From: an uncultured Verrucomicrobiae bacterium
GTDB taxonomy: Bacteria; Verrucomicrobiota; Verrucomicrobiia; Chthoniobacterales; UBA10450
Direction of reading: 5' to 3'
NCBI GenBank assembly: GCA_963834385.1
Contig: CAWIBO010000002.1
Coordinates: 672,001-736,000 of the forward strand
Length of the DNA stretch: 64,000 nt
Each line of letters starts with the position of its first letter. Position 1 is the stretch's first letter. Shown here one piece after another: positions 24,770 to 30,700 of this stretch. Position numbers: made by a program.

Positions 24770-27700
24770 CCCCTGGATTAAAACCGTGCTGTCGGTGTCG
24801 GCCACCTTGTTGATCAGGTTGTAAACGAGCTGCATCTTCCGGCTCGTGCCGACGATGTTCTCGAGGCGGTAACGGTTCTTGAGTTCCTTCCGCAGATAGG
24901 TGTTTTCCCGAACCGCCGCCTGGTAATCGAGGGCCCGCTGCACCGTCATCTGCAGCTCGTCGATCTTGAACGGCTTGGGCACGTAGCCGTAGGCGCCCAT
25001 CTTCATCGCCTCGATCGCGGTGTCGACTGAGGCAAAGGCCGTGATCAGGATCACCGAGGTCTGGCGATGATGTTCCCGCACGTGACGCAGGACATCGAAC
25101 CCGCTCATCGTTTCCATTTTGATGTCGGTGATCACCACCTGCGGCTGGATCGAGTCGAGCTGCTCCACCGCCTTGGTCGCGGAGTTAAACGGGAAAACCT
25201 GATGCCCTTTTTCGCGACAAAGCGTCACGATGACTTCGACCATGGCCGGCTCGTCGTCGATGATGATGATCTTCGCCATATTCGCAGCGCGGAGAATATC
25301 GCAAAATTGAGAGAAGGAAAGCGGAAATGAGAGGGGCTCAGGCAGGAGCGCCGGCCACCTGGCCGCCGAGCATGCGCCACGGGACGGCACCTTCGTGCGC
25401 GAGGATTCCCTCGAACCAATCGGTTTCCTTCCGGGTTGGGAGCGGGACGGCGATGAGATCGGCGAGAAAGCCCGGGGGCGATCCGGCCGAGGCGATGGCC
25501 CTGGCCCAGCGCGGCGGCGCCGTTGCTCGTGGCGAACCGGAAAAGATCTTCCGGGGGCAGCCCGGGGTGTGTTTTCCGCAGGGCCCGCATTTCCGCCAGC
25601 ATGCTGAAATCGGTGTTGCTCGCCAGGCTGTCAGTCCCGAGGCAAATCCGGGCGCCGGCCTCACGCAGCTCCTCGAGCGGGAAGGACGAATGCCCAAAAT
25701 AGGCGTGACTGCGCGGGCAGTGCACGACGTACGGCGCGTCTTCGCCACCCAGCGTCGCAAGGTCGTCCGGGGCCAGCTCATTCACGTGGGCCAGGATCCA
25801 GCGATGATCCAGGGTGACCAGCCGGGCGAGCGTTTGCACGGGACTCTCTCCTTCGCAATCCTCCATCGGCCGTCCGAGCGCCTGCACGAGTTCAAAGAGC
25901 GGGCCCTCCCTGGTCGCGAAACATTTTCATTTCATCCCGCGACTCGGCGAGATGCATCGTTAAAAGAAAATCGTCTTCACGGGCGTATTCGAGACAGCGC
26001 CGAATAAGCGCGGGCGAGGCAGTGTAGAGCGCATGCGGCGCGAGGGCGCTGCGGGGCCGGCCGCGCCATTTCTCCACGAGGGCGTCAAGGCCGGCAGGTG
26101 CGCGTACATCGATCAATTCCGCGCCCCACCAGATGCGGAGCGGCTCGGTAAAACCGGTGTCGCGCAGCGCGGGATGTCCCGTCAGGTTCAGGACGCTGGT
26201 GGTGCCGAAGGCGGCGGCCTCGGTCATCCCCTCTGCCACGGCCGGCTGGTAATCGCTCTCGCTCAACCGGCTCCGCCATTCATTGATCTCGCGCACCCAG
26301 GCCGTGAACGACGAGGGACGCGCGATCTTCCCGCGCAGCATGGTGTAATCGAAGTGACAGTGCGCGTTGACCAGGCCGGGCAGAAGGGCGCAGTCTTCGA
26401 GTTCAACCGTTTCCTCTCCCTCCTTCGCCACCAGATCGTGACTCACCGCCGCGATCTGCTCTCCCTCCACCCGCACGGCGCCGCCGGGGATGACCGGGCC
26501 CGCCATTGTCACCACCGCGCGCGCCCGGATGATCATTTCGTTTCTTTCACCGTCGTCCGGGCCGCGGCCACGAGGAGGGCGCAGGCCTCCTGGCAGAGGA
26601 GAGGCAGACACGTTTCATCACGGCCCGTCTGGTCGTGCAAAGGATCGTATTTTTGCGCCGGCAATAAGGAGCTGGCCGGCGTCCCGGCCCGGTCCCGGGG
26701 CCAAAGAATGGTGCGGAGACAACCGCCCTCCGAGCGGCAGATCCGCGCCACCAGCGTGTTCGCCGCCTCGTCGGAAATCCGGGCCGCCACCCGATACATC
26801 CCGGTCTGGCGTTCCAGCGTCTCGCGGAGAGAGGTCGGCTTCAGGCGCCCGGCGGTGAAAGAGTCGAAGGCGGCGAGACGCCCGGGATAAAAATAATCAA
26901 GCGCCAGCGCCAGCTCCGAGAGACCTCGCACCTGCAGCTGCCAGCCATGGGCAAGGTTGGGCGCCGTCTTCAACGGCCGGAATTTGCCCTCGTCATCCAG
27001 GCGGGCGAGGGAGGCGGCCGCTTCCGGTCCCGATTCTTGTCGCAATCCTGCGCGGCCCACATCGTCACGATGACAGAGCAAAAACAGCCCGGGACCCGCG
27101 GGAAGAATGGCGATCTCTCCCATCCGTCCGCGGCCATCCTCCAGGCACAAGGCGAGGTTCTTCTCGGACTGGCCCGGCATGGTCCGCCGTCCCCGGGCTC
27201 AGGAGAGCGGGTGGGCCAGGAGCGCGGCCGCCGCCTCCAGGAATTCCTTGTCTTCCTTGCCGAAAGCCCCGGTCTTTTCGCTCTCGGCATCAAGGATTCC
27301 GACCACCTTCTTGGAATCGTTACAGACCGGGACGATCACCTCCGAGCGGGTGTTGCAGAAGGTGGGCAGGTAGCGCGGGTCGCTCTGCACGTCGGCCACC
27401 ACGATGGTTTCGCGCGACTCGAGTGCGGCCCCGGCCAGGCCCTGCGTGACGGGAAAACGGGGATAGGTGGGCGGTTGCGTGCCCGTGGCCGCGCAGATGA
27501 TGAACTCTCCCCGGGAGACGGTATAAAGCCCGACCCAACGATAGTTTCGCGCGGCCCTGATCTTTTCCACCAGCTCTTTCAATTCGTTTGGCCCGACCGT
27601 GCCGGTCACAACCATGGCGCCGAGTTCCTGCAGGACTTCACGATATTTTTCCATGGGAGGGCCTTTAACTTCGCTCAAAAACTCAGGCAGGCGAGCAGAG

Positions 27701-30700
27701 ATCACCGGTCTTTTCCCGGAGGGCCGCCGCCAGCTCGATGATGACATCGGCCACGCCGGGATCGGTGCCAATGGCGCTGGCATAATAAAGCTGGCGACCG
27801 TGCAGGGAGACAGGGTTGCGCCGGAAAACGTTGTTCAGGCTGGCCGAGCCCGGCCGGCTCCGTCTCCATCCCGAGCAGCACCGGGATGTCTTCGAAACTG
27901 TGGAGACCGTCCGCGATGAAGAACGGCACCACCACCACGTGCTTCGTCCGGGTCAACTTCACCCAATCGGAGACCAGGGGCGGCTCCTCCATGTAAACGC
28001 CCTGCACGCTGGCGTAGTCGCCTTCCGCCGCCAGGCGCCGGGCCTGCTCTTTTGCCGCCACCGCGCTGTTGTCGTTCAGCGAAGTGCCATGGCCGACAAT
28101 CAGGAGCGAGGTCTCGGCTTCCGGGACGCCGGGCGCCACGGCGCGCGCGCGGGCGAGCAGAAGCCGGGTCATGAGCGGGTGATTCCCCACCGGCTCGGCA
28201 TATTTCCAGACCTGGTGCGCCTTCTCCGTGACCGGCGCCCGCCAGCTCCAGTTCGCGCGGAATCACGGTCTGGGTGAAATATCCTTCGCTGATGAAATTG
28301 GGCACCACGTAGACTTCGGACAAGGCCCTTTCCCGGAAATACTCGCGCGCGTCGCGCAGGCTCGGCTCCTCCTTCCAGAAGGCGCAGCGAACTTCCCCAA
28401 ACAGATTGCGCCGCCGGATCTCGCGCGCGTGCGCCAGGGTCGGCGCGCTGGAATCGGCGTTGACGGTCGAGCCGTGCCCGACCACCAGAAGCCCTGCCCC
28501 GCGGAAATCCATGGTTCACTGTGTCGGCAAATCCGCCGGGCGCCAGTGCTTTGACGGGGTGCTTCCTGCAAGCGAACCTGTGGCACGATGAAATTTCGCA
28601 CCTACAAAAACACGGACCTGACCGTGAGCGAGGTGGGGTTCGGGCTCTGGACCATCTCGACCGGGTGGTGGGGGAACTTTACCGAGGGCGAGGCCGTGGC
28701 CCTGATGCACCGGGCTTTTGACCTCGGGATCACCCTCTTCGACGCGGCCGATACCTACGGCAACGGCCTGAGCGAGGAACTCATCGCCAAGGCCTTCCCC
28801 AACCAGCGGGACGAAATCGTGATCGCCACCAAAATCGGCTACGATTTTGTCACGCACGGCGACACGCGCGGGCGCGGCCAGCGCGAAATCCCGCAGGATT
28901 TTTCTCCGGAAGCGCTCGGACGCGCGACCGATGCCGCGCTGCGGCGGCTGAAGACCGACCGGATCGACCTCCTCCAGCTGCACAATGTCCGGATGGAACA
29001 GGTCTACGACGACGCGGTCTGGACCACACTCGAGCGCTTGCAGGAGAGCGGAAAGATCCGGCATTACGGCATTGCCCTCGGACCGGCCGTTGGCTGGCTC
29101 TACGAGGGGATCAACTGCATCCGCGAACGGGCTTTCGCCAGCGTCCAGCACATCTATAATGTGCTCGAGCAGCATCCCGGGCGCGCTTTGCACGAGGCCG
29201 CCGCGGCGGCGGAACGCGACACCATGTTTCTCATCCGGGTGACGCACTCCTCCGGCATGCTCGAAGGAAAATACACCGAGGACACCGTCTTCCCGCCGAA
29301 CGATCATCGCAATCATCGGCCGCGCAGCTGGCTGCTGAACGGCATTAAAAAAATTGACCAGCTCCGTTTTCTCGAGACCAGCGAGCGCACGCTCGGCCAG
29401 GCCGCCCTGCAGTGGCTCCTGGCCGATGAGCGCGTGGCTTCGACCCTGCCCAACATCTACGAGGAGGCACAGCTGGTGGAATTCGCCGGCGCGCCGGAGT
29501 GTCCTCCCCTGACCGCCGAGGATCTCGCCCGGATCGACGAGCTTTATGCCGCCAATTTCGGGCTGCCCGCCGAAGAACCGAAATTCAAGGGGACGATGAT
29601 GGAGCCGGCCGCGGCGGCGTCCGCCTGACCGCGGCGGGCTAGTTCGAGCGGTCGATCTCCTCTTCGGGCGTTTCTGCAGGCTCCGCCGGGACGGCGCGCC
29701 GCGAACGTTTCCCGTTGCTCTTGTAAACCTCCTTGAAGACCTGCGCGATCATCGGGGCGGCATGCGTGCCGCCGTGGACATCGGCGCCGACCGCGCCTTC
29801 ATAGACAGCAGCGAAAGCGAAACGCGGCTCGCTCGCCGGCAGGAAACCGGCAAACCACGCGGCCGTCCGCTCTTTTGTCTTTGGTCCCCACTGGGCCGTG
29901 CCGGTTTTTCCCGCGACCTCCACGTTGTCCATGCTGGCCGAGTGGCCGGTGCCCGAGGGACCGTTGACCACGTTGATCATGCCCAGGTGGACCAGGTCCA
30001 TGGAAAGCGCCGATGACCCGAGGGTTTTCTTGGCCCGCACCTGGTAGGCCGTGACCACTTCGTTCTCGACCGATTGCACCTGCTGCACCAGTCGCGTTTG
30101 GTAGAAGGTCCCCTTGTTGGCGATGATGCCCATGGCCTGCGCCATTTGCAGCGGGGTGGTCTCGCAGTCGCCCTGCCCGATGGAGAGATTGGCAATGTCG
30201 CCGTTGAGAAGTTTTCGACCGTGCGCGGCCCTCATGTATTGATCCGTCGGCACCCGGCCTTCCGCCTCTCCCCGCAGGGGAATGCCACAGCGCGCCCCGA
30301 AACCAAGACGCAGGGACCAGTCAATGATGGGATCGGCGCCGATGCGAATGCCAACCTGATAAAACCAGGTGTCGCACGATTCCGTCATGGCCTGGACAAA
30401 ATTCAACGGGCCCCGGTCGACCTTTTTCCAGTTCCGCATGGTGGTATTGCCGATCTGCATCGAGGGGTAACACTGGTAAAGGTCATCCGCGCGGACCAGG
30501 CCGGTCTCGAGCGCGGCCAGTCCGACCGCGACCTTGAAGACCGAGCCGGGCGGGTAGGCCGAGCGATAGGCCCGCGGCAGAAGCGGGATGTCCGGATCAT
30601 CCTGCAGTTCCTTGAATTTTGCCTCCGAGATGGAGGGGATGAACACGTTGGGATCGAAGGTGGGCCAGGAGGCCAGGGCCAGGATGTCGCCCGTGTTCGG

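Follow-up and report, generated by a model that had tools for sequence, protein, structure and literature searches.

Gene content of the cbiX–DR2241 locus

Our analysis of a 64,000-nucleotide window (the whole stretch of DNA that was analysed) from the uncultured Verrucomicrobiae bacterium G000, whose genome is 89.6% complete, centered on the following genes:

25338..26536, minus strand: amidohydrolase, aminofutalosine-deaminase-like (score below the cut-off), with a frameshift near 25910 and an approximate 3′ end
26533..27180, minus strand: DR2241-family four-cysteine, predicted Fe-S protein (PF18069 and PF18009 [Fer4_23])
27199..27654, minus strand: GAF-domain gene (PF01590), between cbiX and the DR2241 gene
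27700..28512, minus strand: cbiX, type II chelatase with two domains (PRK02395 type; PF01903 in both pieces, NF002671/2 partial), its frame broken twice, near 28236 and near 27845, with an approximate 3′ end
28588..29628, plus strand: aldo-keto reductase (AKR; PF00248), divergent from cbiX

The cbiX product, by its sequence probably a sirohydrochlorin ferrochelatase, has two domains and the HGS/HGT/DGLH motifs, though the gene is frameshifted in the G000 assembly. Comparison with the G014 ortholog showed it to be split over three frames, which bears out the frameshift reported in a preliminary description of this DNA. The breaks resemble assembly errors or damage of very recent origin; roughly 3 of 41 test genes are interrupted in the assembly, and a contig from a relative lacks the extra base at one break, while neither break is fully bridged by the relative's DNA contigs. 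The same description gave the DR2241 reading frame (26533 to 27180) correctly but overlooked the AKR gene, and its statement that cbiX and DR2241 are neighbors does not hold in G000, where the GAF gene intervenes. This GAF gene, also present in G065 of the same family, is probably a passenger. The amidohydrolase, often encoded 3′ of DR2241 in the order and joined with it into one polypeptide in two database entries, is outside the proposed heme route.

A heme route with a gap at AhbC

G000 encodes HemA, HemC, CobA-HemD, CbiX, a fused AhbAB and ChdC, with hemA, hemC and cobA/hemD in one operon, as well as COX1. The fused AhbAB (contig positions 542170 to 543297) and ChdC (1241682 to 1242479) were found where they had been placed before; the former has two PF17805 domains above the cut-off, with NF040707/8 matches under it, and the latter matches NF008913 with 261 bits (cut-off 253) as well as PF06778. 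Also in line with the earlier account, none of the 17 radical-SAM matches in G000 is AhbC-like (TIGR04546), the best scoring 52 bits where the cut-off is 650; for AhbD the best was 66 bits against 500, and two of the 17 are without assignment. HemE and HemH searches of G000 (PF01208, TIGR01464 and PF00762) gave zero matches, profile searches found neither HemF nor SirC, and the HemN-like match is HemW, so the reported absences stand. SirC (TIGR01470) was found in 1 of the 54 Verrucomicrobiota genomes of our panel, which is not G000. The panel comprised 80 hand-picked genomes, among which kin are not independent.

The AhbC gap in G000 is real and is shared with 21 other panel genomes. The hybrid siroheme–AhbAB–ChdC route without AhbC that had been proposed is well supported. 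The two 0.9-Mb genomes indeed keep AhbAB, ChdC and DR2241, along with CbiX and the AKR, and do so without sulfite reductase. Because no sulfite or nitrite reductase and only two tetrapyrrole-methylase matches were found in G000, heme is its only evident sink for precorrin-2. Cytochromes alone prove nothing, since G001 and G027 encode COX1 and a heme route was not found in either.

Structure and distribution of the DR2241 protein

The DR2241 protein of G000 matches PDB 2JH3 over that structure's C-terminal half (Z 20.6, rmsd 2.5 Å over 190 residues); 2JH3 was the only structure retrieved by fold searches with its model (next match, Z 3.2). Every one of 72 aligned sequences has C148, C154, C196 and C200; the four cysteines and the kinship to 2JH3 described previously were therefore both confirmed. 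From the Pfam description and the cysteine pattern, the protein is predicted to bind a 4Fe–4S cluster. Neither it nor the AKR matched radical-SAM models, the CxxxCxxC core and SPASM domain being found in neither, and an AhbC-like role for either would be by analogy.

As had been noted, DR2241 is common in the order, occurring in 69 of 81 genomes by PF18069 and in G002 by PF18009; the latter, with its gene at a contig edge, was rejected as a DR2241-negative exception. In the panel, all 43 genomes with AhbAB and ChdC have DR2241, compared to none of the three with AhbAB, AhbC and AhbD and no ChdC; DR2241 does accompany the hybrid route. The claim that it mostly excludes AhbC was not upheld, as AhbC is present in 19 of the 46 panel genomes that carry DR2241. 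DR2241 is carried by 22 of 22 gap genomes, versus 19 of 22 for the AKR.

The constant partner of DR2241 is cbiX (78 of 80 haloarchaeal loci), and in none of 42 genomes did DR2241 lie 6 kb or less from ahbAB or chdC. A fusion search, which is weak for absence, revealed DR2241 fused to CbiX (seven proteins) or amidohydrolase (two) and to no heme enzyme. No DR2241 relatives were found on viral contigs, and querying metagenomes with the fused protein P0153 gave zero matches. The one Rhodothermia match above the cut-off among 31 genomes, a haloarchaeal-type copy in a MAG, was discounted as probable contamination. On three occasions DR2241 disappeared together with AhbAB from genomes that retained cbiX and sulfite reductase; eight order genomes from three separate clades keep an orthologous cbiX and sulfite reductase and have neither SirC nor DR2241. 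The dN/dS of DR2241 is 0.31 to 0.43 without AhbAB (five pairs) versus 0.14 to 0.17 with it (two pairs); the G224 sequence, taken in an incorrect frame, was excluded from this comparison, as was the accompanying tree, for its poor resolution. In G159, which has AhbC and no AKR, one of the four cysteines is replaced by tyrosine.

DR2241 in siroheme cassettes outside AhbAB genomes

The CbiX–DR2241 fusion lies head-to-tail with CobA-HemD in a sulfate-assimilation cluster on 3 of 3 Deinococcus replicons, and in haloarchaeon G222, which has HemE but neither AhbAB nor SirC, cbiX–DR2241–cobA adjoins sulfite reductase. All four cysteines and an RQxGxY motif are retained in the Deinococcus and G222 proteins. 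The preliminary description had listed G008, G023 and Deinococcus radiodurans as carriers with no detected AhbAB, and we likewise found none there; in these genomes and in G222 the DR2241 gene is intact and evolves under purifying selection. Among 26 haloarchaea, all 18 that have a siroheme sink carry DR2241, and none of the 8 that have no such sink. Intact DR2241 beside cobA and sulfite reductase in the absence of AhbAB points to siroheme formation with CbiX, and on this comparative evidence DR2241 is more likely a redox partner of CbiX in that process.

Two controls bear on the earlier alternative that DR2241 supplies the SirC step: D. radiodurans has DR2241 and yielded no SirC or AhbAB, and Thermus thermophilus shows the reverse, with SirC and no DR2241; however, 17 haloarchaea have both DR2241 and an intact-looking SirC, so DR2241 does not act simply in place of SirC. 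The idea that haloarchaeal SirC is dead was rejected, as 14 DR2241-positive and 5 DR2241-negative genomes have SirC motifs that look intact. In a third control, Sulfolobus acidocaldarius, the same gap is present (drawn also on an extract of PMC3004389) and DR2241 was not found. Together with the AhbAB-less siroheme cassettes and the missing linkage to ahbAB and chdC, this means that replacement of AhbC by DR2241, as first proposed, is not the best reading.

Distribution and linkage of the AKR

The AKR has a TIM-barrel fold with the features that define its superfamily, and D52, Y57, K82 and H132, which we take to be the Asp-Tyr-Lys-His tetrad, are invariant in 18 of 18 aligned sequences. Its orthologs occur in 38 of 43 panel genomes with AhbAB and ChdC and were found in none of the 3 with AhbAB and no ChdC and none of the 34 lacking AhbAB; among these 34 are the three that retain DR2241 (G222, G008 and G023). 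The ortholog was present in 17 of 17 AhbAB haloarchaea tested and is retained in both 0.9-Mb genomes (63 to 64% identity); archaeal and bacterial proteins are 39 to 43% identical and, in the panel, confined to the AhbAB–ChdC route. Among the five AhbAB–ChdC genomes in which it was not found, AhbC is present in two, and the assembly of a third comprises 710 contigs. G065 and G044 (97% complete, 4 to 5 contigs) are without AKR, AhbC and HemE and keep DR2241. Six viral matches are paralogs (24 to 33% identity), none orthologous.

Of 38 genomes, 5 have the AKR gene no more than 6 kb from chdC and 2 have it that close to ahbAB. Among 80 metagenome AKR loci, 12 have chdC directly 3′ of the AKR gene and 2 have ahbAB there, in lineages other than that of G000; stop and start codons overlap at six of these, and cbiX also occurs at 15 of the 80. 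In four loci the AKR is followed by a ChdC–Rieske [2Fe-2S] fusion, and in at least seven the next gene is ridA, which is not a heme gene. An AKR fusion search gave three uninformative matches and is weak for absence. By phylogenetic profile and gene linkage, the AKR appears a better candidate for the AhbC gap than DR2241, although we know of no C–C cleavage chemistry by an AKR.

A candidate oxygen-tolerant route and its alternatives

From the gene content, profiles and linkage observed, we infer activities for the DR2241 protein and the AKR. Our tentative preference is for an oxygen-tolerant siroheme route in which CbiX–DR2241 would make siroheme, the AKR would serve the AhbC step and ChdC would end in heme b. 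Specifically, CobA-HemD would provide precorrin-2, and CbiX with its Fe-S partner DR2241 would convert it to siroheme. The four-cysteine cluster would most likely act as a one-electron relay that oxidizes the bound macrocycle, replacing the NAD-dependent SirC, or might instead sustain iron insertion in air. The fused AhbAB would produce 12,18-didecarboxysiroheme (DDSH), from which the AKR would remove the C2 and C7 acetates as a dedicated factor before ChdC forms heme b. As acetate removal amounts, by computation, to the release of two acetic acids with no net redox change, the AKR would either use NADP(H) catalytically or itself provide an electron that quenches a released acetyl radical. Somewhat more doubtful is the wider proposal of a complete radical-SAM-free, aerobic siroheme-to-heme pathway in bacteria and archaea with two enzymes not described before, DR2241 coupled to the chelatase as a precorrin-2 oxidase that relies on Fe-S and not on NAD, and the AKR as the NADP(H)-dependent enzyme stripping acetates from an iron-isobacteriochlorin.

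The two 97%-complete gap genomes without AKR and the three losses of DR2241 make it arguable that the two proteins carry out the AhbC step jointly, with NADPH entering through the AKR and single electrons through the DR2241 cluster, possibly with ChdC; DR2241 in sulfite-reductase cassettes would then be a second use or a hitch-hiker of CbiX. This fits the split between genomes with AhbAB and ChdC (43 of 43) and those with AhbAB, AhbC and AhbD (0 of 3), the loss of DR2241 with AhbAB rather than with cbiX and sulfite reductase, and the cysteine replacement in G159, and the ChdC–Rieske fusions at four AKR loci suggest that an Fe-S carrier is needed. An extract of PMC12505453 likewise proposes a quenching electron from an Fe-S cluster for AhbC. 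Nevertheless, we regard a joint role as unlikely, given the intact, selected DR2241 in AhbAB-less Deinococcus, G222, G008 and G023, the last three also AKR-less, and its linkage to cbiX rather than ahbAB or chdC.

Replacement of AhbC by DR2241 alone through Fe-S radical chemistry, the AKR being accessory, would cover all 22 gap genomes, including G065 and G044, and agrees with the co-occurrence of SirC in haloarchaea. We consider it improbable: DR2241 would have no substrate in AhbAB-less carriers, it is located in siroheme cassettes, S. acidocaldarius has the gap without it (PMC3004389, in extract), its four invariant cysteines suggest a fully ligated electron-transfer cluster rather than a radical-SAM site, and the tight AKR–chdC and AKR–ahbAB operons would be left unexplained. 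We also give little credence to the view that there is no new acetate-removing enzyme, the work being done by ChdC with H2O2 or by nonenzymatic oxidation while the AKR and DR2241 protect or re-reduce oxygen-labile intermediates, or heme or coproheme being taken up. ChdC is present in every gap genome and acts on rings A and B, the same as the acetate-removal step. G001 and G027, with COX1 and no heme route found, are in keeping with such a view, and according to an extract of PMC4063343 a cysG strain without dehydrogenase was rescued by chelatase alone, so such steps are possible without a dedicated enzyme. Against it stand the retention of AhbAB, ChdC, CbiX, DR2241 and AKR in both 0.9-Mb genomes without sulfite reductase and the conservation of the AKR between archaea and bacteria within the AhbAB–ChdC route.

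Comparison with known heme and siroheme pathways

G000 shares with the AHB/SHD pathway of Desulfovibrio and Methanosarcina (AhbA/B, AhbC, AhbD) a SUMT-HemD fusion, a type II chelatase, AhbA/B (fused in G000) and siroheme as the likely intermediate, but it is without detected AhbC, AhbD and SirC, ends in ChdC and has the AKR and DR2241 traveling along. With the CPD pathway it shares ChdC, whereas UroD and coproporphyrin ferrochelatase were not found. Haloferax volcanii makes heme with AhbA/B, AhbC, SirC and CbiX2, using PitA/ChdC aerobically and AhbD anaerobically (PMC5746218), and does so without UroD, CgoX and CpfC. G000 resembles it in having AhbAB and ChdC with no UroD or CpfC found, and haloarchaeal cbiX2 adjoins a DR2241 gene, with the AKR ortholog also present; unlike G000, H. 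volcanii has SirC, AhbC and AhbD.

The Deinococcus radiodurans protein DR2241/DRA0012 (PDB 2JH3; COG2138) has the same fold and four cysteines and is fused to the same CbiX type, which in G000 is a separate gene. The Deinococcus copy examined neighbors cobA-hemD and sulfite reductase; its genome has HemE, HemH and ChdC, and no AhbAB was found there. As with SirC/SirB of Bacillus megaterium, Met8p and CysG, a SUMT, a chelatase and a third gene give a three-step siroheme layout, but DR2241 has neither a Rossmann fold nor an NAD site, and haloarchaea carry it alongside SirC. The nearest solved structures to the AKR are family 11 AKRs (IolS/AKR11A, AKR11B and AKR11C1), with which it shares the TIM barrel and tetrad but only 24 to 28% identity; the heme-linked AKR has invariant WW, GPxxGWLxEG and DHRxxR motifs of its own and matched no NCBIfam model at E 1e-30.

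In the open-access literature searched, including the supplement of PMC8305020, we found no paper tying DR2241 or the AKR to heme or siroheme and no function assigned to DR2241/2JH3; if the proposed roles hold, this orphan structure would gain one, and the route may offer an oxygen-tolerant way to coproheme. An extract of that supplement gives ahbC in 107 of 166 haloarchaea and chdC in 161, and states that heme synthesis in the ahbC-less third or so is unresolved. That question becomes testable through two single-copy genes, those for the AKR and DR2241, and the same AhbC gap extends across an order of Verrucomicrobiota, including reduced genomes of 0.9 Mb.

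The heme pathway of G000 contains a gap shared by other genomes

The genome under study (G000, 89.6% complete) encodes ccsA-hemA-hemC-cobA/hemD together with a fused AhbAB, ChdC and COX1, and no HemE, HemH, HemF, SirC or sulfite/nitrite reductase was found in it. By the names given to its relatives, G000 falls in Verrucomicrobiota, close to Chthoniobacterales. Its 17 radical-SAM matches include neither AhbC (best score 52 bits) nor AhbD (best score 66 bits), and the HemN-like match is HemW. Two radical-SAM proteins, L036 (G000:C1:206915-208063) and L046 (G000:C5:380695-382224), fell in no family above cut-off and are not AhbC-like. 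With only two tetrapyrrole-methylase matches, G000 shows no evident B12 route, which leaves heme as the sole visible precorrin-2 sink.

We drew 81 genomes of the order, 91 of the phylum and 56 of Halobacteria, with DR2241, a four-cysteine Fe-S family protein (PF18069+PF18009; Fer4_23), in 69, 6 and 48, respectively. From these, a panel of 80 was hand-picked (54 Verrucomicrobiota and 26 haloarchaea, DR2241-negative genomes over-sampled) and searched for SirC, AhbC (counted at ≥350 bits), AhbAB, ChdC (two weak PF06778 matches of ~50 bits left out), HemE, sulfite/nitrite reductase, CbiX and an aldo-keto reductase (AKR) encoded in the window. AhbAB and ChdC without detected AhbC or HemE, the combination that defines a gap genome, occurred in 22 of the 80; thus, the gap is not an artifact of one incomplete genome and is real in G000.

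Co-occurrence in the panel (counts should not be read as frequencies, and related genomes are not independent samples)
AhbAB and ChdC: 43 genomes; DR2241 in 43, AKR in 38
AhbAB and ChdC with AhbC: 19 genomes; DR2241 in 19, AKR in 17
Gap genomes: 22 genomes; DR2241 in 22, AKR in 19
AhbAB without ChdC (all with AhbC and AhbD): 3 genomes; DR2241 in 0, AKR in 0
No AhbAB: 34 genomes; DR2241 in 3, AKR in 0

The observations of the preliminary description, namely this route and its gap, were largely confirmed. Its interpretation is supported in part: DR2241 does travel with the AhbAB route (43/43 genomes with AhbAB and ChdC), but it does not mostly exclude AhbC, as 19 genomes have both. The control genome of S. 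acidocaldarius encodes AhbAB, ChdC and SirC, and no HemE, AhbC or DR2241 was found in it; in at least one case, therefore, something other than DR2241 fills the gap. Available sections of PMC3004389 record nirJ1/nirJ2 as absent from S. acidocaldarius, Hqr. walsbyi and N. maritimus.

AhbC-like radical-SAM genes (~385 bits) also occur in two HemE genomes in which AhbAB was not found (G037:C9:35361-36434 and G071:C83:8097-9233), either as relics or with another function. In nine haloarchaea with HemE and ChdC and no AhbAB (G173, G174, G180, G190, G196, G199, G205, G221 and G222), a coproporphyrin-type route replaces the siroheme route. Sulfite/nitrite reductase without SirC, CbiX or DR2241 at the thresholds used was seen in G081, G091, G103, G112, G135 and G138. 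G001, G017, G027, G040 and G063, in which no HemE, AhbAB or ChdC was found, are possible heme auxotrophs; COX1 was present in both of those tested.

Organization of the cbiX-DR2241 locus

The locus contains the following genes:
28512 to about 27700, minus strand, cbiX, split over three frames
27654-27199, minus strand, GAF gene, between cbiX and DR2241
27180-26533, minus strand, DR2241 and Fer4_23 protein, 215 amino acids
25338-26536, minus strand, aminofutalosine-deaminase-like amidohydrolase, split over two frames
28588-29628, AKR, divergent from cbiX, ~75 bp between them

The cbiX and amidohydrolase frame breaks are likely assembly errors, because about 3 of 41 test genes are split in this assembly, COX1 is in two pieces and a relative's contig has no extra base where cbiX first breaks. 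Many order genomes, both 0.9-Mb genomes among them, have the amidohydrolase after DR2241 (L156, L157, L161-L165, L167, L168, L170 and L171), and two database proteins (P0001, P0002) are fusions of the two. Since G000 has MqnC and MqnE, the role of the amidohydrolase is probably in menaquinone synthesis; S-adenosylhomocysteine (SAH) deamination aiding CobA is a conceivable alternative.

A possible role of DR2241 in siroheme formation

In sequence, the 215-residue DR2241 protein corresponds to the C-terminal half of PDB 2JH3, and its model (pLDDT 97) superimposes on that fold with Z 20.6 and an rmsd of 2.5 Å over 190 aligned residues. The four cysteines, R68, W80, R124, Q125, G127, Y129 and W160 are invariant in 72/72 aligned relatives.

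The constant neighbor of DR2241 is cbiX (78/80 haloarchaeal loci). Single-protein tblastn found no ahbC, ahbD, ahbAB, chdC, sirC, cobA or sulfite reductase within 8 kb of haloarchaeal DR2241, and in none of 42 panel genomes did DR2241 come within 6 kb of either ahbAB or chdC. The pathway clusters that it does join are siroheme clusters. On 3/3 Deinococcus replicons (D. radiodurans as a control genome, the other two genomes as single replicons), a CbiX-DR2241 fusion lies head-to-tail with a CobA-HemD lacking a SirC domain and adjoins sulfite reductase, cysC, cysH and sat. The D. radiodurans genome encodes HemE, HemH and ChdC, with AhbAB and SirC not found; in the T. thermophilus control, SirC is present and DR2241 was not found. 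In haloarchaeon G222 (HemE present, no AhbAB or SirC), cbiX-DR2241 in one frame is followed by cobA, and sulfite reductase and an FrhB-type gene run divergently from this cassette; a Halorussus plasmid carries DR2241-cobA. Two order genomes, G008 and G023, have lost AhbAB and ChdC and kept DR2241 and sulfite reductase. An enzyme acting on 12,18-didecarboxysiroheme (DDSH), the AhbAB product, would have no substrate in these carriers.

In two haloarchaeal DR2241 cassettes, a TrpD-like gene (anthranilate phosphoribosyltransferase fold) follows cobA (L155:7124-8191, L060:10463-11590), and one of the two adjoins sulfite reductase and an FrhB-type gene. In Deinococcus ficus (L059:5751-8002), the CbiX-DR2241 fusion has as neighbors a TIGR04053 enzyme resembling AhbD and a cytochrome P450.

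Two observations argue against DR2241 as a plain SirC substitute: 17 haloarchaea carry it alongside a SirC whose motifs look intact, and in eight order genomes from three clades neither protein accompanies the orthologous cbiX (42-55% identity) and sulfite reductase. An oxidase may be dispensable at low siroheme flux, since a cysG strain lacking the dehydrogenase can be rescued by chelatase alone (PMC4063343). These three points underlie our reading, which we hold at roughly even probability, that DR2241 is a CbiX redox partner needed for bulk siroheme synthesis in air.

An aldo-keto reductase is a candidate for the AhbC step

AKR orthologs scored ≥245 bits and paralogs ≤151 bits. The protein shares 63-64% identity with its orthologs in the two 0.9-Mb genomes and 39-43% with those of haloarchaea, where AKR is present in 17/17 genomes with AhbAB and 0/9 with HemE. 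It was not found in G008, G023 or G222, the three genomes on which the hypotheses differ. Five haloarchaea have chdC, and both 0.9-Mb genomes ahbAB, within 6 kb of AKR. Among the best 80 of 578 metagenome loci, many of them short, it is immediately upstream of chdC in 12 and of ahbAB in 2, shares a locus with cbiX in 15 and accompanies hemA-hemC-ahbAB in 1. Four of the 12 are ChdC-Rieske [2Fe-2S] fusions starting at the AKR stop codon (L268, L275, L290, L291). Because it is linked, lineage by lineage, to three different enzymes of one pathway, AKR very probably belongs to the heme pathway. Its catalytic tetrad is intact, the family that it forms with its orthologs has distinctive Trp/Arg/His motifs, and its nearest structures are family 11 AKRs (24-28% identity).

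AKR does not do the work of SirC, since haloarchaea have both and genomes with a siroheme-only pathway lack AKR; this leaves the AhbC step. Profile searches included, AKR was not found in five AhbAB and ChdC genomes: G007 and G159, which have AhbC; G002, which is in 710 contigs; and G065 and G044, which are 97% complete. A ridA (RidA/YjgF) gene lies downstream of AKR, with no heme gene, in at least 7 of the best 80 of 578 loci (L264, L266, L271, L272, L274, L276, L280). In the 0.9-Mb genome G009, type III secretion-like genes (HrpJ, TyeA and FHIPEP families) directly adjoin chdC (L189:4117-8510).

Allocation of the two proteins and a proposed mechanism

The G000 route belongs to neither the AHB nor the CPD route. 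It resembles the former up to DDSH, whereas AhbC, AhbD and SirC are missing, and the latter at its end, whereas UroD and ferrochelatase are missing. It departs from known heme synthesis in that it would include two unassigned enzymes, AKR and DR2241. Among the literature examined, the mix of the two routes has been shown experimentally only in H. volcanii, which relies on PitA/ChdC under aerobic conditions and has no uroD, cgoX or cpfC (PMC5746218). No functional assignment for DR2241, DRA0012, 2JH3, Verrucomicrobia AhbC or AKR with these enzymes was found in the open-access literature searched. DR2241 and DRA0012 are listed as predicted cobaltochelatases in PMC1274311, and cbiX2 is proposed as a siroheme ferrochelatase, its partner gene unmentioned in the available sections (PMC3403918; PMC8305020).

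The allocation we favor, at somewhat under even probability, would place AKR at the AhbC step and DR2241 at siroheme formation. The preliminary description made DR2241 itself the candidate replacement for AhbC. Its link with AhbAB and ChdC agrees with this, but its four cysteines and RQxGxY motif are kept in the AhbAB-less carriers (Deinococcus, G222, G008 and G023; dN/dS 0.31-0.43) and the S. acidocaldarius gap is filled without it; for DR2241, a part in the AhbC step, alone or shared, is only slightly less likely than the siroheme role. The main rival, that DR2241 and AKR share this step, is less likely than the favored allocation. Two points speak for it: DR2241 evolves under stronger constraint where AhbAB is present (dN/dS 0.14-0.17, two pairs), and in G159, with AhbC and no AKR, it has lost one cysteine.

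For AKR at the AhbC step, DDSH and coproheme differ by formula by two acetic acids, and the loss is therefore redox-neutral. AhbC has been proposed to release acetyl radicals needing an electron and a proton, in sources whose available sections describe no purified-AhbC studies beyond the first demonstration (PMC12505453, PMC10114771). One possibility is that AKR, with NADP+, brings about a transient oxidation at C3/C8 so that acetate can leave; another is that O2/H2O2 initiates the cleavage, perhaps on ChdC, and AKR then supplies electrons from NADPH. Participation of an Fe-S carrier in the step is hinted at by the ChdC-Rieske fusions, and DR2241 therefore remains a candidate for that carrier.
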